From positions 1 to 36,060 of the IMG/VR virus record IMGVR_UViG_3300012232_000437: a DNA stretch of 36,060 nt; one strand, given 5' to 3'. Source of the stretch: a virus. Lineage: Duplodnaviria; Caudoviricetes. The position numbers were made by a program, and so were the translations under genes. Shown piece by piece: positions 1,730 through 22,278 of this stretch (its first letter is position 1; the number at the start of each line of letters is the position of its first letter). A model generated the notes under the pieces. It saw only the letters and a program-made list of their open reading frames with translations. It was not told the origin of the DNA and searched no databases.

Positions 1730-2263
1730 AGGAGTCAGTCCGGAATTTGTCTCCAAGTCAGACGATGCTTAATCTTCCAGACCGACAATCGTTGCAAGTC
1801 ATAGTCGCTAGCAATGACCCCGTGAGTGCGAGGGTCTTTGCGAATGGCCCGCACTTGGTCTGGCGTGAGTTTGATCGTGGGCGACGGTGGCATGCCGGGG
1901 TGTCTCTTCTTCGCCATCATGTCGGCCGCGTTATCTCGCTGTGTTCCGAGAAACAGATGCGCGGGATTTACACAGCGCGGCACGTCACAACGGTGCAGGA
2001 CATTCAGTCCCTTAGGTATCGTGCCGTGCGTCAACTGCCACGCGATGCGATGCGCATACATCGGGCGGTCCTTCCGTGTCGACGGATGATCTGGTTGCTG
2101 GACGGACATCTGTCCATACCCTTTGTTGTTTACGGTGGATGTCCAGAGCCAGCATTCAGCCGGTCCGGCGATAGAAACTTTCGACCAGAAACGATTCTTC
2201 ATCTCCATAAGGTGTAAGCATACAGTACATGGACAAAACCAGCAAGTAACGGAAATAAAGGAG
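1724..2263. mobile_element. HNH cassette flanked by 11-bp direct repeat AAATAAAGGAG
   Basis: Repeat at 1724-1734 and 2253-2263 brackets the antisense HNH gene and contains the upstream stop codon and an RBS. Confidence 0.65.
1735..2208 (-). CDS. Free-standing HNH homing endonuclease with C-terminal HTH-like tail
   Basis: RFWSKV..CWLWT, AHRIAW, VLHRCDVPRCVNPAHLFLGTQRDN motifs. Confidence 0.9.
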   Translation of the reverse strand: MEMKNRFWSKVSIAGPAECWLWTSTVNNKGYGQMSVQQPDHPSTRKDRPMYAHRIAWQLTHGTIPKGLNVLHRCDVPRCVNPAHLFLGTQRDNAADMMAKKRHPGMPPSPTIKLTPDQVRAIRKDPRTHGVIASDYDLQRLSVWKIKHRLTWRQIPD

Positions 2264-3546: not shown

Positions 3547-3686
3547 GAGACGAAACCGATCGCGGCTTCCAAGACTTCAGCGGCAATGAGCTGACGATTG
3601 GATCGACCATCGATGATCCCCGGAGTAGGGACTTGTTGAAACTCAGCCGTAAGACGGTCGGGTATCAACTTCTGTCGAGCGGGAAG

Positions 3687-3815
3687 CTACTTCCGCTTCG
3701 GTTGAGACGGCTTGAGCAGCCTCGCGAGAGCTGTCTGCGGATCTTCGGTGATCACGAGCCGCTCTTCCCTCGGTCCGCGTTTTGTAGGCTTCTTGGGCTT
3801 CTTCGCCTTGGCCAT
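3687..3815 (-). CDS. Small Lys-rich peptide (42 aa), IS passenger
   Basis: MAKAKKPKKPTKRGPREERLVITEDPQTALARLLKPSQPKRK; below the ORF-track cutoff. Confidence 0.55.
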   Translation of the reverse strand: MAKAKKPKKPTKRGPREERLVITEDPQTALARLLKPSQPKRK

Positions 3816-3837
3816 AACCCCTATGCTATAAAGAGAG

Positions 3838-3922
3838 TGCCCCGGCCGGGGGTCGGACCCGGACGACCTGGAAGGTCACCCGCGTGCAAGGCGGGCCTGT
3901 CTACCAATTCAAGCACCGGGGC
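3838..3922 (-). tRNA. Class II tRNA with tRNA-Leu-like body and UGC (Ala) anticodon
   Basis: Acceptor GCCCCGG/CCGGGGC plus A73; D region CTTGAATTGGTAGACAG; anticodon stem CCCGC/GCGGG with loop CTTGCAC; variable arm GACCT-TCC-AGGTC; T arm CCGGG-TCCGACC-CCCGG; no encoded CCA. Confidence 0.85.
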
Positions 3923-3944
3923 ACATTTAAAGGCCGCCGAGCGC

Positions 3945-4244
3945 TCAGCGCTTCTTGGCGGCCTTTGTCTTTCCAATACCGATCAATTTCAGGGACGTCT
4001 CGACCGGATTCGCGACAGCAGCGTCGACGGACAGATTGTTGACCTTGTCGGTCCTCTGCAAGCCGATGTTGAGCACGGGGATGAGTGCAGTCGGTTGCAG
4101 GTTGTCGTCACTAGCCCCGACATTCATGCCGCGTATCCCGAAATTAATGAACAGTCCCCATATCCCGTCATGGATGCCTTGTGCCTTGAGAAGTGCCGTG
4201 ACGACTTCTTTGTGACTAAAACGGATTTGTGTTTGTTCCGGCAT
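3945..4244 (-). CDS. Hypothetical protein, third gene of the TA-like operon
   Basis: 99 aa, globular-looking, overlaps the end of the HTH gene. Confidence 0.75.
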   Translation of the reverse strand: MPEQTQIRFSHKEVVTALLKAQGIHDGIWGLFINFGIRGMNVGASDDNLQPTALIPVLNIGLQRTDKVNNLSVDAAVANPVETSLKLIGIGKTKAAKKR

Positions 4245-4761
4245 ATGTCAAACCCTGCAGAAACGGCTTGTGCTCTCCGTAGGCGAAATCGTGTTCCACC
4301 TTCGTGGTCGTCACGCGACGCTGAAAAGGATTCGGTGGTATTGGCTGTTGCGACCAGTTCCATCGAACGTCGACCAGTGTTTCAGTGTTGGTTACGACCG
4401 TGGCATTCGCCGAGGAAACGTCAGTCGGCTGGCCGGTCTTCTTCCAGCACGCCACAAAGACCTGCGGGTGAATCGGACCAGTGCTATGAACAACGTCGCG
4501 GTCTTTGTAGGCCACAATCGTCACCTTTAACTTCAGGGCACTGGCGTACTGGACGATGTTCTTCAGCGTCAGATTGCCTGGATGATTCAGGATTTGAGAC
4601 ACGCGGCCCTTGGTCACACCAAGGATTTGGGCAAGCTTGGCGCGGTCGATTCCTTCGGCTTCCATCACGTCTTCCAATTGTGCGACGAAGTCGAAGGCGA
4701 TCTGGTAGAGAAATCCTTTGTTATCGCGATTCCCCCAATTGCCTCTCAATGAGTGGTCCAT
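4216..4761 (-). CDS. XRE-family HTH antitoxin (HigA-like) with long C-terminal extension
   Basis: GIDRAKLAQILGVTKGRVSQILNHPGNLTLKNIVQYASAL HTH motif; downstream of a toxin-like gene. Confidence 0.8.
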   Translation of the reverse strand: MDHSLRGNWGNRDNKGFLYQIAFDFVAQLEDVMEAEGIDRAKLAQILGVTKGRVSQILNHPGNLTLKNIVQYASALKLKVTIVAYKDRDVVHSTGPIHPQVFVACWKKTGQPTDVSSANATVVTNTETLVDVRWNWSQQPIPPNPFQRRVTTTKVEHDFAYGEHKPFLQGLTYAGTNTNPF

Positions 4762-5249
4762 CGTCGTCGTCCTTCTCGTCGTCGTCGTTCTTTTCCAAAA
4801 ACACGCTTGACCGCTTCCTGGACCTCCGGGTGCTGACTCATCGCGCGGACGGTCCTCTTAACAGCCGGGTCAGTTCTGAAATCGTCCTTGGCTCTAAAAC
4901 AACAGAGGATACAGACCTCAAGTCGAGGCCTCGGCCGTCCCAAGAACCCATACAAGCGCCGATGCTGTCGTTGGTGGTCCCAGCGGAACACATACCCCAT
5001 GGAAAACTCCTGGTCGTCGGACCATCCGTGGTGAAATTCGCGATGTGCAACGCCAGCCAACCAATCACGGAAACGTGCTTGGACCTTGTCCTGCTCCTCA
5101 AGCCCGGAACTATGCGTGGTGCTGTCGATTCTCCTAAGCACCGGCCACGCATCGACCTCGTCGTTGCCATCAAAAACCAAGTATCCCAATGCCCTGATCG
5201 CCGACCGCGCGCCAGGTATGGGGTAGACCGTCACACGTTGGGGCGGCAT
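4746..5249 (-). CDS. Putative RelE/HigB-like toxin
   Basis: Position upstream of and overlapping an XRE gene; RRLYGF...CILCCFRAKDD resembles the RelE/Gp49 C-terminal strands; fold not verified. Confidence 0.55.
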   Translation of the reverse strand: MPPQRVTVYPIPGARSAIRALGYLVFDGNDEVDAWPVLRRIDSTTHSSGLEEQDKVQARFRDWLAGVAHREFHHGWSDDQEFSMGYVFRWDHQRQHRRLYGFLGRPRPRLEVCILCCFRAKDDFRTDPAVKRTVRAMSQHPEVQEAVKRVFGKERRRREGRRRWTTH

Positions 5250-5261
5250 CTCGACTCCTAT

Positions 5262-5290
5262 AGTTTAGGCATAACTAAACCAGGCGTCAA
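5262..5290 (-). promoter_or_regulatory. Sigma70-type promoter of the TA-tRNA operon with operator-like inverted repeat
   Basis: TTGACG-17 nt-TAAACT, then AGGAG RBS; inverted repeat GTTTAG-N6-CTAAAC at 5263-5280. Confidence 0.7.
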
Positions 5291-5297
5291 ATTGCTG

Positions 5298-5326
5298 TTG
5301 CAATAGGTATCAAGATATGAGATACT
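5298..5326 (+). promoter_or_regulatory. Transposase promoter, probably leaderless mRNA
   Basis: TTGCAA-17 nt-GATACT with ATG 6 nt downstream. Confidence 0.6.
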
Positions 5327-5332
5327 GTATCC

Positions 5333-6340
5333 ATGGTCAAGAACACATCCCCAGTGCTGAATGCATTGAAGTTGGCGGCCGTCAGCGAAGGCGCTGCCGT
5401 CGCGTTTCTCGAACAACAGCGATGGGGCGATGCACCCGCGTGTCCGTGGTGCGGCGATACCGACGTCTATCAAATGAAGGACGCGAGCGGGCAGCGGAAC
5501 AAAGACTATCGCTGGCGTTGTAAGGGCTGTAAGCGAATGTATACGGTTCGCATCGGTACGATCTTCGAGGAAACACGTTTGCCACTGCGCGTGTGGGTGT
5601 ATGCGTTCTGGCGCGCATGTGCGAGCAAGAAAGGCATCTCCGCGTTGCAGCTTGCGCGCGAGATGGAGATCACGCATAAGTCCGCGCTGTTCGTGCTTCG
5701 TCGTATCAGGCACGGCCTCAGCACCGACATCGACAGCACGCCAAAACTCACAGGCTCTGTCGAAGCGGACGAGACGTACATCGGTGGTCGCCCGCGTCGG
5801 TACTTCGGATACAGCAAGAAGCACAAGCCCGGACCAGCTGATAAGACTCCCGTTGTCGGTGTCGTGCAGCGTGGCGGCGACGTGCGGTTCCGCATGTTGG
5901 ATCGCGTCACGTCTGATCGACTTGAAGAATTCCTCGCAGAGAACGCGGACCACACGTGCCGACTGATTACCGATCAGTACTCAGGCTATGCACGTGTCGG
6001 GCAGAAGTTCGCAGGCGGACACGAGTCAGTCAAGCACGTGATCGGTGAGTACGTCCGCAAGGGCACCGACATTCACAGCAACACGATTGAGGGCGTCTTC
6101 TCGCTGATCAAGCGCGGCGTGATGGGCACGTTCCACAGCGTCAGCAAGAAGCACCTGCCGAACTATCTGAACGAGTTTGAATTTCGGTGGAACACGCGCA
6201 AGCTGGACGACGGTCAGCGCATCACGCGTGCGATTCGTCAGGTGGAAGGGAAGCGCTTGGAGTATCGCGAGTCCGTTGATAACCCGCCGTACCTGCCGCA
6301 GTTCAAGGGGCAGGCACCGGCACCATTCGAGGGCGAGTGA
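5333..6340 (+). CDS. IS1595-family (ISXO2-like) DDE transposase
   Basis: Zn ribbon CPWCG..WRCKGC, GISALQLARE, EADETY, ITDQY, HSNTIEGVFS, YLNEFEFRWN. Confidence 0.95.
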   Translation: MVKNTSPVLNALKLAAVSEGAAVAFLEQQRWGDAPACPWCGDTDVYQMKDASGQRNKDYRWRCKGCKRMYTVRIGTIFEETRLPLRVWVYAFWRACASKKGISALQLAREMEITHKSALFVLRRIRHGLSTDIDSTPKLTGSVEADETYIGGRPRRYFGYSKKHKPGPADKTPVVGVVQRGGDVRFRMLDRVTSDRLEEFLAENADHTCRLITDQYSGYARVGQKFAGGHESVKHVIGEYVRKGTDIHSNTIEGVFSLIKRGVMGTFHSVSKKHLPNYLNEFEFRWNTRKLDDGQRITRAIRQVEGKRLEYRESVDNPPYLPQFKGQAPAPFEGE

Positions 6341-6534
6341 AGGAATCTGGAGTACAGATCGTGACCAACTTGGCGGGTGAGATCACCCGTCTATTTGATG
6401 CGTGCGGAGCCTCACAGATCGAACGCTATGCGGCGCTGGACGTCGCGCGAGCGCTCGTATGTGTGAGTAGCGCGTCTATTTCCTTGAGTTCGCCGCGAGA
6501 AGATCCAGTGCCGCCTGAATCTGGCGCAGGGTGA
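6337..6534 (+). CDS. Small hypothetical protein in the IS
   Basis: GTGA overlap with the transposase stop; 65 aa. Confidence 0.35.
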   Translation: MKESGVQIVTNLAGEITRLFDACGASQIERYAALDVARALVCVSSASISLSSPREDPVPPESGAG

Positions 6535-6586
6535 TATTGAGGGTCCGAAGTTCGTTCACGAGTGCAATCGCGCTGGAGTCATTCAT
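6476..6586 (-). CDS. Small helical peptide (36 aa) in the IS
   Basis: MNDSSAIALVNELRTLNITLRQIQAALDLLAANSRK, amphipathic pattern. Confidence 0.35.
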   Translation of the reverse strand: MNDSSAIALVNELRTLNITLRQIQAALDLLAANSRK

Positions 6587-7020
6587 GGTGATTGGAGCGT
6601 ATTTCAGCGATGGCGTCGTTTCAACAAATACATAGTCCCGGATGATCCAGCGGCGGTACGCGTGGCCTCACCCAGTGGCGTCAACAAGATCAGCGGCAAT
6701 GTGCTGACGCCGGAAGGCACACAGCTCGAGAAGACGCTGCTGGTGCTGACGATGGACGAGTCTGGCGGCTGTTACGACTTCCAGGCGCAGCTGCCTGGAC
6801 GCACCGACGACAAGGGCATGATTCGCTTGGCCCGCCTGTCGCCACAGGGCTTTGAATTGTTCGTGCCGATCATCCACAGCACCCAAGCGCCACCGCCGCC
6901 CGCACCTCCTGACAGCAGCGACCCCCTGCATGGCATTCCCGCTGGTGACTTTTCCAGGATATTGGAAATGTACGGCTTCGCGTCCGATATGCAAGAGGCC
7001 TACGGCAATGCCCGCGTAAC

Positions 7021-7209: not shown

Positions 7210-7596
7210 CTGCACGAGTTCCACGGGGACAACATGGACCGCGCAGGGGCACATAACCCAGACAGGCACCGGGCTGGACGGCCCTACTGAATTGGGCAAC
7301 TTCACAGAGGCGCTTGCCGCGGAGGTGCAGCGGTTGCGCGCGGTGCTGCTGCAGATTATCCGGACACCGGGAGCCGATGTGGAACGGCTCAAGGCGATTG
7401 CCCGAGAGGCGCTGGAGAAGTGAGCCCCAATGATGCGGCGCGGCGGTGGCTCTGGATCCTGCTGGGCGCGACCGTCTGGGCCGTCTGGGACTCGTGGCGC
7501 CGCGGCTGGCTGTAGTCTGCGCCGTTCACTGTGACCTCACAGCTGGGAAACCCCGCTCATCCCCGGGCGGGGGTGAGGTCGCGGTGGACGGCCAGT

Positions 7597-19765: not shown

Positions 19766-20266
19766 TTATGCGGACGCGGTGCTAGCGACTTGCGGTGTTC
19801 TGTGCGATAGGCGTCGATAGTGATCCTCGATCAAGTCGTTCGAGATGACGCCCAAGCTGCCATGCATCGCCCGCTTAGTGAGATCCCACGGCGAGCCCTT
19901 CTGGTGGGTCAGCGCAGACAGCTGAACGCCCGTGTACGTATGGTAGGCGTTCCAGACCTGCTCCATCACCTTGCGCTCTCGACCATCGAACTCAATCGGC
20001 TGGTGTTGCGGGCAATCGGTAATGAACTTGCTCCCGAACTTCTTATAGCGGTGATAGACGGACGCGACCACCGGGCCGTATTGCCACGCCTCCACCTGCT
20101 CGGCAAACAATGGCCTACTGTGCAGTCCTAGCATCCAGCCGTGAGAGATGTAGACCATCTTCAACAGCTGCATGGGCGTAATGGGATCTTCCCGTGACAA
20201 CCACATGAAGTACTCCGCAACACGTTCAGCCGTATGACTCTTGGACACTAGAAGCGATCTTAGCAT
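19766..20266 (-). CDS. Panacea (SocA/DUF4065) antitoxin
   Basis: TPMQLLKMVYISHG, EAWQYGPVV, LSALTHQKGSPW. Confidence 0.92.
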   Translation of the reverse strand: MLRSLLVSKSHTAERVAEYFMWLSREDPITPMQLLKMVYISHGWMLGLHSRPLFAEQVEAWQYGPVVASVYHRYKKFGSKFITDCPQHQPIEFDGRERKVMEQVWNAYHTYTGVQLSALTHQKGSPWDLTKRAMHGSLGVISNDLIEDHYRRLSHRTPQVASTASA

Positions 20267-20301
20267 GCGGTGCCAGAAACCGCTGAAAATGTCAAGGGCG
20301 T

Positions 20302-20571
20302 TCAGTTGGGCGGCGCCTGCGGCAAGTCAGTCCCACGGCGCTTATGCGGGAAAAATTCCGATACCTGACAACCGAGCGCTTTCGCGAGCAAGATCAGCGT
20401 GGCGACCGTGGCGTTGCCGGTGCGCTCGATTTTTAGGATGCCTTGGCGAGTCATCCTGGCACGTCTCGCAAGCTCACTCCGCGACAATCCGGAGCGAATG
20501 CGAGCGGCGCGCAGCTCGCGCGCGAATGCTTGCAAGTCCGGACGGATAGCGAGCGCGGGCGGTAACTTCAC
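20302..20571 (-). CDS. XRE-family HTH regulator
   Basis: LRAARIRSGLSRSELARRARMTRQGILKIER..LAKALG; abuts the transposase stop. Confidence 0.85.
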   Translation of the reverse strand: MKLPPALAIRPDLQAFARELRAARIRSGLSRSELARRARMTRQGILKIERTGNATVATLILLAKALGCQVSEFFPHKRRGTDLPQAPPN

Positions 20572-21417
20572 CTACGCCGCTTTCGCTTCGGCCGCATCAA
20601 GCAGCCCGATTATTTCCTCGACAGACCACACGCGATCCGTGAGGCCAGCAGCCATCGCAGGCGTACCGCCGAGCGCCTTCTGTGAACGCGCAAAGTTGTA
20701 GTGCATATAGTGCAGTGCCAGCGCGTGCTCGTGATTCTCGACCTTCTTGGAATGGCCGTTCGTCAAGCGCGTGAATCGGCGCATCGACATCCGCATCTGG
20801 AGATTCTGTCTCTCGATATAGCTGGTCGAAATGTGCTCGATGGCTGGATCGCCTGACACGACCTGCACCTTTGTCTCGATGCAGACTGCGGGCGCGTAGC
20901 GCTTCTCTGCGTTCGGGTCGCTCCCGTACACTTTTATCAATCTCGCGTAGTCGATCTCCGTGCCGAACGCCGCGTCGGTCGCTTCGAGATAGGCGTGGAG
21001 TCCATCCGTGGTGAGCTGCACGCGCGATGTGAGGCGCGCTGCAAGATCCTGCATGAACGGATACGCGGTTTCGGCAGTGCGACGGCCAACGACCCACGAC
21101 AGCACCAGCTTTGAATCCGCGCACTGGCCGACCCACGTCCACAGGTCACCGAATCCAAAAACACCCTTGTATTCCTGCGGCACGTTCTCTCGACGCGCGT
21201 AGCAGAACGACCAAATCTCATCGCACTGCACGCGCTTCGCTGGCACGTTGCGCACGTTCGCGTCGTGGAAGGCTTCGCACGCCGCGCCGAGGTCAACCAG
21301 CAGTTTGGTCACGGTGTTGATGGACACGCCAACCATGCGGGTGATGCTTCGCAGGCTGTTTCCCTCGACAAGGGCCTTCACGATTTGGACCCGCTTGGCC
21401 GTGCTCAACTTGTTCAT
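20572..21417 (-). CDS. IS1-like DDE transposase
   Basis: N-terminal HTH, QCDEIWSF, LTTDG, STSYIERQN..MRRFTRLTN; matching IR and target duplication. Confidence 0.92.
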   Translation of the reverse strand: MNKLSTAKRVQIVKALVEGNSLRSITRMVGVSINTVTKLLVDLGAACEAFHDANVRNVPAKRVQCDEIWSFCYARRENVPQEYKGVFGFGDLWTWVGQCADSKLVLSWVVGRRTAETAYPFMQDLAARLTSRVQLTTDGLHAYLEATDAAFGTEIDYARLIKVYGSDPNAEKRYAPAVCIETKVQVVSGDPAIEHISTSYIERQNLQMRMSMRRFTRLTNGHSKKVENHEHALALHYMHYNFARSQKALGGTPAMAAGLTDRVWSVEEIIGLLDAAEAKAA

Positions 21418-21423
21418 GAGATA

Positions 21424-21452
21424 AGTATGCGTGAGCGCTCACGTATAGTCAA
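21424..21452 (-). promoter_or_regulatory. Transposase promoter with palindromic operator, probably leaderless
   Basis: TTGACT-17 nt-CATACT, ATG 6 nt later; palindrome CGTGAGCGCTCACG at 21430-21443 in the spacer. Confidence 0.75.
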
Positions 21453-21491
21453 GACAGAAATGGCGTACAGGGGAGGGCGACTGCAATTAAT

Positions 21492-21520
21492 TTGCAGTGA
21501 CGGATCAGTCTGATTAGAAT
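21492..21520 (+). promoter_or_regulatory. Sigma70-type promoter pointing into the non-coding hairpin region
   Basis: TTGCAG-17 nt-TAGAAT; inverted repeat CTGCAA-N5-TTGCAG overlaps the -35. Confidence 0.65.
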
Positions 21521-21526
21521 GGGGAA

Positions 21527-21725
21527 TTGAAGAGGCAGCTCGGTTAGGTGGTCTTGGCCGACCACCTAACCGAGCTTTTCGAGCCTGTTCACCAGCAGCC
21601 CGCTATCTAGGCTAATCCTTGCCAAGGGGACCTAGTTAGCGGGCTTTCCCTCGTACCGGCCCCCGCGTTCGGTGAACGCGTCAATCGCAGGGGCTTGAGT
21701 GGGTTTCTTCATCGCTGCCCTCCGT
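21527..21725 (+). ncRNA. Candidate IS-encoded structured RNA
   Basis: 17-bp perfect hairpin 21537-21576, second long hairpin ~21597-21645, third ~21659-21694; no ORF of 60 aa or more; promoter upstream. Confidence 0.6.
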
Positions 21726-21732
21726 CTCGCCA

Positions 21733-22206
21733 CTAGCGAGCTAGCTTGAGCTGGGCTTGGGCTGGGACGGCTTCAGGCTCGCCATCGGCGCCCTCAGCGC
21801 CATGCTCAAACTCGATCAGCCCGAACGTGTTCGGCTCAGGCCGAGTGAAAATCTCCCTCTTACGTGCATAGGCGGAGAGCGCGCTAGCCAAAGCCCGCTT
21901 GTTCGCAAGCGTTGTAGCCACGCCCATGCTTTCTAATAGGTTCACCAAATACACGGGGCGACCGGCGCTCTTTAGGACCGGATAAGCCCTTGCGGGCATG
22001 CTGCCCTTGCGTAGGGCACGAGCGCTTTCAGCGGCAGACTGAGGTGGAGTGGTGCGCTCAGCCAACTTGAGGGCTTCTTCAAGGCCCTGCACGTAAGCCT
22101 GCGCTGCCGTCCGCTGTTGCTCAAGAGCGGCTGCCTGCTGGTCAATGGCCGCAATCTCTTGCCTCTTGGCCCTGATGCGACGCGACAGGTCGTCTGTGAG
22201 TGCCAT
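21733..22206 (-). CDS. Coiled-coil plus winged-HTH-like protein
   Basis: N-terminal heptads; C-terminal AYPVLKSAGRPVYLVNLL..IFTRPEPNTFGL. Confidence 0.7.
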   Translation of the reverse strand: MALTDDLSRRIRAKRQEIAAIDQQAAALEQQRTAAQAYVQGLEEALKLAERTTPPQSAAESARALRKGSMPARAYPVLKSAGRPVYLVNLLESMGVATTLANKRALASALSAYARKREIFTRPEPNTFGLIEFEHGAEGADGEPEAVPAQAQLKLAR

Positions 22207-22278
22207 GCCGTGCAGTGTATCACGGCTGAGCAAATGAGTGAGAAGGCTAAATTAGGGGTGACGGTGATGAGTGACAGG

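Follow-up and report, generated by a model that had tools for sequence, protein, structure and literature searches.

What is an insertion sequence doing with a tRNA whose body belongs to one amino acid and whose anticodon belongs to another? The question is raised by a 36-kb virus record with lysozyme, ERF, and YqaJ genes, analysed here over its whole length of 36,060 nucleotides (the window). ARAGORN calls a single tRNA in it, at 3837-3922 on the minus strand and with anticodon UGC. An earlier note, made from the letters alone, took this to be a leucine tRNA body with an alanine anticodon on a mobile element, and both halves of that description stand: the tRNA lies within the inverted repeats of an IS1595 element and is conserved in relatives of that element.

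The individual features listed in the note are likewise all seen in the sequence. The 85-nt cloverleaf is of the 7/5 type, with A73 at 3838, a long variable arm in a variable region of 16 nt, a Leu-type D loop (AAUUGGUAG), A15:U48, C2:G71, C3:G70, a U12.C23 mismatch, U33, U34, and C55. Rfam returns no match to the window tRNA at the gathering threshold or at E<=5, and its single-strand fold is no better than that of shuffled sequences (z -1.39); proof beyond chance must therefore be comparative. Among 45 homologues, 99.4% of the stem cells are paired and both sides have changed at 16 of the 24 pairs, against 30-46% pairing in slid controls. This confirms that the window tRNA is real and more than a chance match.

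The family was sampled through the transposase alone, as the best 80 of 531 metagenome loci; three loci from unpublished genomes (L457, L462, and L571) were left out of all counts. Unfiltered ARAGORN output places a long-arm tRNA in 55 of these best 80 loci, in each case upstream of the transposase and on the opposite strand. The tabulation of homologue anticodons proposed in the note yields UGC in all 55 and a leucine anticodon in none. Wherever the left end is visible among the 80 the tRNA is there too (51 of 51 loci, with no end lacking one), and the 25 loci without a tRNA have at most 1124 nt upstream. One of the 80, L197, is identical to the window and so is not independent. The position is equally regular: the distance to the left end is 213-263 nt for 52 of 57, and the tRNA comes directly before a small basic ORF. 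Read inward from the left end, the core genes are the small ORF, the tRNA, and the transposase, with variable passengers between the last two. In this IS1595 subfamily the tRNA thus belongs to the conserved core. A near-identical copy occurs in a Vicinamibacterales bin (L343), so the host of the element probably lies within the Acidobacteriota.

Identity positions can be read across 47 distinct tRNAs, drawn from the family loci, five further loci (L194, L279, L326, L335, and L343), and the window; two of them were not aligned for covariation. Measured against the E. coli leucine determinants in the available part of PMC9976931, the family has A73 and A15:U48 in 46 each, A14 in 47, G18G19 with A20a in 45 of 45, and the long variable arm. 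The anti-serine pair C2:G71 named in the same source is present in all 47, so that neither tRNA-Ser mark, G73 or the lack of C2:G71, describes these molecules. The tRNA-Ala mark G3:U70 occurs in none, C3:G70 taking its place in every one. Two leucine marks are missing: A35 of a leucine anticodon, given UGC throughout, and U55, which is retained in 13 and replaced by C55 in the window and 34 of the 47, so that the G18:U55 pair important for E. coli LeuRS (PMC9976931, available part) is broken. CCA is encoded in 22, and G12:C23 is found in 46. Judged by these elements, LeuRS would be expected to charge the IS1595 tRNA. The note had seen both U12-C23 and C55 as deviations that might reduce or abolish activity; the mismatch is indeed private (1 of 47), and the window's own copy is probably weakened by it, but C55 is a family trait and not decay.

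The carrier spans 3620-6640, with 23-bp inverted repeats that enclose the tRNA, three passenger genes, and a transposase with the Zn-ribbon and DDE domains of the IS1595 type, and it is flanked by an 8-bp duplication (GATGATCC), the target duplication length of the IS1595 family. The features are collected in Table 1.

Table 1. Coordinates of the IS1595 element, its genes, and its fixed GCA codons in the window
Feature	Position	Strand	Basis or remark
Left target-site duplication copy, 8 bp	3612..3619		Repeat at insertion ends; empty site joined in run X3
Left inverted repeat, IS1595 element	3620..3642	+	Flanks of X4, X6, X7 end exactly at 3620
Small basic ORF, 42 aa, family core gene, always between tRNA and left end	3687..3815	-	ORF comparison
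tRNA, Leu-type body, UGC anticodon at 3888-3886	3838..3922	-	C55; CCA not encoded; mismatch of U12 (3911) private to this copy
G+C-rich hairpin with UUU after it, adjoining the tRNA on the upstream side	3929..3970	-	Fold -25 kcal/mol
Passenger ORF, 99 aa, unnamed family	3945..4244	-	ORF comparison
Passenger HTH_3 protein, 181 aa, antitoxin-like	4216..4761	-	HipB/HigA matches below cut-off
Passenger ORF, 167 aa, RelE/ParE (Gp49)-like fold predicted	4746..5249	-	TM 0.56/0.80, predicted models
Divergent promoter region	5262..5332		Internal inverted-repeat core 5298-5309; -10-like hexamer 6 nt before transposase ATG
IS1595 transposase, 335 aa	5333..6340	+	PF12760, PF12762; NF033547 171.5 bits, cut-off 75
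GCA codon 95, invariant	5615..5617	+	68/68 genes; 0 changes on tree
GCA codon 202	5936..5938	+	59/61 Ala codons; 2 changes on tree
Six-residue C-terminal motif, codons 327-332, GCA at positions 2 and 4	6311..6328	+	Consensus comparison
Passenger ORF, 65 aa	6337..6534	+	No match
Right inverted repeat	6618..6640	-	Different flank begins at 6641 in X3
Right target-site duplication copy	6641..6648		8-bp repeat

Joining the two flanks without the insertion restores an open frame of 151 codons at the empty site. Contigs from other runs hold this empty site and two further insertion sites at exactly the IS1595 end bases; therefore the element moves. The second site lies at window positions 7469-7476 in related phage contigs (runs X3, X6, and X7), and the third falls outside the window (X3 and X4). 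Both ends with an 8-bp repeat were found in 40 of 87 loci checked for termini. The stretch 3620-5427 recurs in run X4, which comes from a different study, apart from two differences that leave the anticodon untouched, and an assembly error there is ruled out. One of the two differences, at 3911, restores G12:C23; G12 is also found in X5, and U12 in X1 and X2, which are possible sources of the window. Runs X3 and X7 also hold, at another site, a tRNA-less version that lacks 3837-4378, to be accounted for by help in trans during the move, by loss of the tRNA after insertion, or by the element having no need of it. Elsewhere in the window, a second IS-like island of similar layout (19766-22233; a small basic ORF plus passenger genes) has an IS1-type transposase-like ORF at 20572-21417, with NF033558 below cut-off, and no tRNA called, and the lysis region contains an inserted HNH endonuclease gene (1735-2208, minus strand) that runs against its neighbours.

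The neighbours of the tRNA divide into a constant and a variable part. The small ORF, 40-45 aa long and Lys/Arg-rich, has a -10-like site of its own immediately past the tRNA and accompanies nearly all family members, and that of the window has no Pfam, PHROG, or NCBIfam match. The hairpin upstream of the tRNA folds with z<=-2 in 24 of 47 relatives, measured against mononucleotide shuffles, and is possibly an attenuator. By comparison the RelE-like/HTH/99-aa cassette, whose RelE-like member has no profile match, occurs in only two clustered tRNA-bearing elements, the window and L266, and is an interchangeable passenger. A role of the tRNA as partner of this cassette is thereby rejected, and the note's alternative of an RNA component of the adjacent toxin system is not supported, the tRNA being present in all elements. 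At the divergent promoters, 60 of 66 relatives have an overlapping inverted-repeat core, compared with 2 of 680 control windows, and the word preceding the transposase is Shine-Dalgarno-like in 0 of 66 elements; in 63 of 66 the ATG is preceded at 5-7 nt by a loose -10 pattern, a figure without a control. Together with the hairpin, these features suggest autoregulated, low expression.

Whether the tRNA has a target can be asked of the codons that it would read. Across 68 transposase genes under 95% identity, codons 95 and 202 are joined by codon 330, which is GCA in all 55 genes with Ala there. Synonymous changes at codons 95, 330, and 202 number 0, 0, and 2 on the tree, where the median is 21, and these three, all GCA, are the most invariant of the 98 four-fold columns. 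The GCA share of Ala codons is 34% in the transposases and 8% in ten long phage frames. Where tRNA-less elements have Ala, by contrast, GCA makes up 2 of 80 codons (four columns, from related sequences); the figure is 246 of 744 elsewhere, and the tRNA-less elements themselves have 38 of 221. The transposase avoids GCA at its essential alanines.

Column 95 is Leu, Met, Val, Ile, or Phe in 63 of 74 tRNA-less IS1595 elements. It is GCA in 39 of 39 elements with a UGC tRNA, and Ala by way of non-GCA codons in 8 of 11 with UGG; in the sister clade Ala95 is the usual residue, and non-cognate codons for it occur there. Other elements mostly have Arg or Lys at column 202. Leucine in other family rows is not enriched at GCA columns (2.7% vs 1.7-4.1%), and columns with at least 30% Leu in tRNA-less profiles make up 3 of 248 for GCA vs 8 of 576; the proposition that all GCA columns are leucine columns is accordingly rejected. 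Partial or broken coding sequences were left out of the column comparison (L282, L295, L308, L323, L326, L338, and L406). Codon 94 is biased as well (AAA in 62 of 68), and the codons neighbouring 202 and 330 vary freely. The transposase structure model (pLDDT 74, C-terminus <50) does not support a ranking by burial, and a PDB search with the transposase retrieved distant DDE enzymes and no IS1595 structure. Conserved GCA columns are absent from the small ORF and, beyond one at 5 of 11, from the three main passenger families. GCA is kept fixed at a few transposase sites where leucine would likely work, and the likely target of the tRNA, not named in the note, is the set of codons in the element's own transposase.

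In the window, two GCA codons fall in the C-terminal motif, which is present in 56 of 68 coding sequences: Gln, then Met/Leu/Ile/Pro/GCA, any residue, GCA, any residue, and Phe or Leu. Position 4 is GCA in 55 of the 56, and position 2 is Met in 34, Leu in 9, Pro in 5, Ile in 2, and GCA in 6, never another Ala codon. In the available parts of PMC3971601 and PMC11139829, the beta-clamp consensus has a strongly constrained Leu or Met at position 4. That consensus (Gln1, aliphatic 2, Leu/Met4, Phe/Leu at 5 or 6) fits here only with GCA read as Leu and not under the standard code; leucine at 328 and 330 would thus build a beta-clamp-binding motif. A version with hard-coded Leu was found neither in P0001-0120 nor in 150 representatives. 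The motif is absent from the UGC elements L472-L474, L496, and L567, and the deeper UGC elements keep GCA at 95 and mostly at 202. CCA appears in the motif-like C-termini of L160 and L296. Some tRNA-less IS1595 C-termini are Ile/Val-Pro-Phe tails, one of them an acidic Ile-Pro-Phe; they resemble the SSB tail, and this would likewise speak for a large residue at that place. Transposases of tRNA-less elements ending in Pro-Phe are those of L445, L451, L482, L483, L486, L491, and L502.

Leucine bodies with other anticodons are widespread. A search pattern for such tRNAs gave 120 loci, spanning many phyla, from 44 of 64 parts of a genome collection, with an IS1595 transposase at 24 (22 of the 80 with full flanks). 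The anticodons of these 24 are UGG (11), UGC (4), UGU (3), AUC (2), UCC (2), AGG (1), and UUG (1). On viral contigs IS1595 accompanies 3 of 65 mismatched loci. Another pattern retrieved ordinary Leu-UAG tRNAs at 119 of 121 loci and an IS1595 match at 0 of 80 with full flanks. In ten genomes chosen for holding IS1595 elements of interest, a transposase lies within 1.5 kb of 6 of 9 mismatched tRNAs vs 0 of 45 ordinary Leu tRNAs. Where IS1595 elements were chosen on Pfam matches only, most have no mismatched tRNA (three clear matches and one weak Ser-like match at 62 loci, with flanks of ~1-1.4 kb), and on the tree most carriers fall in one clade, along with six elements in which no tRNA was detected.

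Within this wider set, column 314 is Leu in 49 of 74 tRNA-less elements and CCA in 7 of 11 UGG elements, with cognate codons also in L344 (CCT, AGG anticodon), L313 (CAA, UUG), and L322, one of the two UCC elements (GGA); column 13 is CCA in 8 of 11 UGG elements. The converse expectation, that a non-Leu residue at 314 predicts a cognate tRNA, failed for L466, L467, L469, and L471, which have Pro, Gln, or Ser there (3.5-kb flanks; 150 candidates scored per draft genome), and L499 and L470 hold non-cognate tRNA-codon pairs. In L473 (4930-5012; the same as L402), the tRNA with anticodon UGC has U73 and a D loop of Ser-like type, and it lies directly upstream of a transposase that is 69% identical and keeps GCA95.

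Several further leucine bodies were seen in passing. An IS1595 element at L499 (3607-3688) carries an ochre (UUA) tRNA similar to the tRNA2 of Mukai and colleagues, and its transposase has no in-frame TAA. Ten with CGC (Ala), all in Gemmatimonadota bins, have no IS1595 found nearby (L287, L290, L293, L357, L362, L368, L377, L387, L389, and L392). Others with ACC (A34, Gly) occur without IS1595 at 11 viral loci, around 3001 (L129, L130, L138, L146, L167, L168, L173, L174, L178, L179, and L193), and in Saccharibacteria bins (L277, L305, L311, and L365). At L301 and L306, around 4001, tRNAs with UUC and AUC adjoin DDE_Tnp_1 (IS4/IS5-type) transposases, so that the habit may extend beyond IS1595; a comparison of these two transposases by eye, without alignment, gave no pattern of cognate codons.

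Two host genomes, G324 and G337, retain ordinary Leu tRNAs beside the IS tRNA, as well as a normal tRNA-Ala(UGC) that has G3:U70, and host-wide reassignment of Ala to Leu is rejected for both. A pattern search for tRNA-Ala(UGC) in the draft genome G001 found none.

The explanation that we favour, with a probability of roughly 60%, is that the tRNA, charged with leucine, inserts Leu at some GCA codons of its own element's transposase and that full transposase activity needs it. Host LeuRS would charge the tRNA, leucine would enter at some of these codons, the residues at 328 and 330 would complete the beta-clamp motif, and fully active transposase would arise only when the tRNA is made. Only a fraction would be complete because host tRNA-Ala(UGC) competes for the same codons; G324 and G337 keep that tRNA, so decoding there would be mixed and complete transposase rare. 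Mixed decoding could then act as a throttle whose effect resembles that of programmed frameshifting. Transcription of the tRNA would come last in the divergent passenger operon, beyond the hairpin, which would keep collateral Ala-to-Leu errors low. We infer the decoding of GCA as Leu from codon patterns: GCA would be fixed where Leu fits and avoided where Ala is needed because it is sometimes, and usefully, Leu. At 95 and 202, leucine may be activating, merely tolerated, or otherwise. The element thus likely controls its own movement by a private codon change. A broader form extends this to an IS1595 clade with a private code, in which Leu-charged tRNAs bear non-Leu anticodons of their own (UGC, UGG, AGG, UCC, UUG, and others) and the needed leucines, those of the sliding-clamp motif included, are hidden behind matching codons, with transposition switched by competition between element and host tRNAs. 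To this we give even odds.

The same tRNA could act without delivering leucine. Poorly charged or uncharged, it might bind GCA and cause pausing or stringent signalling or serve as a decoy, the fixed codons being pause sites; the frequent C55 (34/47) and the encoded CCA in only 22/47 agree with this, as do some irregular tRNAs that are charged but unused, or inactive (Mukai et al., PMC5389517, available part), and L473, where a different body goes with the same anticodon and codon. Host Leu tRNAs, however, likewise often lack an encoded CCA, the full set of Leu determinants is kept, and pausing explains neither the Met/Leu/GCA exchange at motif position 2 nor the cognate codons at the Leu column in four other anticodon classes, which makes this account unlikely. 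Leucine might instead be delivered as a repressor in trans, spoiling the transposase at the fixed GCA codons so that more copies mean less transposition. The prevalence of Ala95 in the wider clade (8/11 UGG elements; 21/40 Trp93-type representatives), the helix predicted around residue 95, and the arrival of tRNA-less copies at new sites would suit such a brake, yet Leu occupies 95 in 3 of those 40 representatives, leucine at 328/330 improves a motif, and GCA is avoided (2/80) at the very alanines where Leu would harm most. We regard a repressor as rather improbable.

The transposase might also be a bystander. Were the tRNA a general mistranslation agent against host or phages (a toxin, a persistence factor, or a means of abortive infection), its carrier's codons would merely have adapted. 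Such adaptation accounts for GCA avoidance but not for fixation at three sites, and the passengers vary, the toxin pair being confined to two elements; these points outweigh, to our mind, the RelE-like pair that the window tRNA follows, the damage or loss of the tRNA in two phage-borne versions, and the killing of E. coli by induced Ser-identity allo-tRNAs that adjoin toxin-antitoxin genes (PMC5389517, available part), and leave this account improbable. Least credible is an RNA-processing signal or neutral passenger, with the GCA triplets serving as a DNA or RNA signal apart from decoding. The fixed place of the tRNA before the small ORF and the bias at codon 94 are what such a signal would produce, but the anticodon is invariant while the stems covary, the neighbours of 202 and 330 are free to vary, and column 95 takes non-GCA codons once the anticodon differs, all of which make it very improbable.

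If leucine is indeed delivered to the transposase, sense-codon recoding joins the ways in which insertion sequences limit themselves, ambiguous decoding has a way to spread between phyla on mobile DNA, and for many soil genomes the annotated transposases, together with 'tRNA-Ala/Pro' calls, are mistaken at key positions. The family is also a natural source of tRNA scaffolds that are LeuRS-compatible and bear many different anticodons.

Among known systems, quoted here from the available parts of the cited papers, the closest in setting are the allo-tRNAs and irregular tRNAs of Mukai and colleagues (PMC5389517), which are likewise mismatched, long-armed, found in Acidobacteria and soil, and near mobile and toxin-antitoxin genes. 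The allo-tRNAs are of the 8/4 or 9/3 type and mostly of Ser or Ala identity, whereas the IS1595 tRNA is 7/5. Their 'tRNA2, tRNALeu (7/5)', seen in metatranscriptomes, has the 7/5 Leu body in common and likewise lacks a Leu anticodon, but all 16 of its rows read UUA (stop) and not UGC, and UGC rows, at 32 of 36 places, are 8/4 E-loop tRNAs or matches in the codon column. The available part of their supplementary table has no IS1595 or transposase entry and no link to an element's own codons. The tRNAProX/ProRSx pairs of Streptomyces and Kitasatospora (PMC11415595) are natural missense tRNAs whose charging follows the body, and one of them has an Ala anticodon; with a Pro body, A33, A34, and a dedicated ProRSx, they are without a known target gene or purpose according to that review. 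The IS1595 tRNA differs in its Leu body, U33, U34, and matching codons in its own transposase, and no synthetase is found among the element's ORFs. Natural bacterial missense tRNAs have so far been without a known purpose, and this family offers named codons and a predicted gain of function. Clamp-motif transposases have a short C-terminal Gln-aliphatic-x-Leu-(x)-Phe/Leu, as here (PMC3971601, PMC11139829); IS1595 is absent from the nine families tested for such motifs in the available parts of those papers. Its motif differs in that no Leu codon stands at the key Leu position.

Outside subscription journals and bioRxiv supplements, we found no published description of an IS1595-borne mismatched tRNA or a self-recoded transposase. 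Taken by itself, the tRNA is one more variant among the hybrid-identity tRNAs already known; its coupling to codons in the carrier's own transposase is the part for which no counterpart was found. If charged by its body, it works like the allo-tRNAs and tRNAProX and is a member of neither group. Programmed frameshifting in IS1 and IS3 throttles the transposase at the level of translation, and bldA is a cognate host tRNA that gates genes with TTA codons. Unlike either, an element-encoded tRNA of the IS1595 kind would alter which amino acid is inserted at sense codons.
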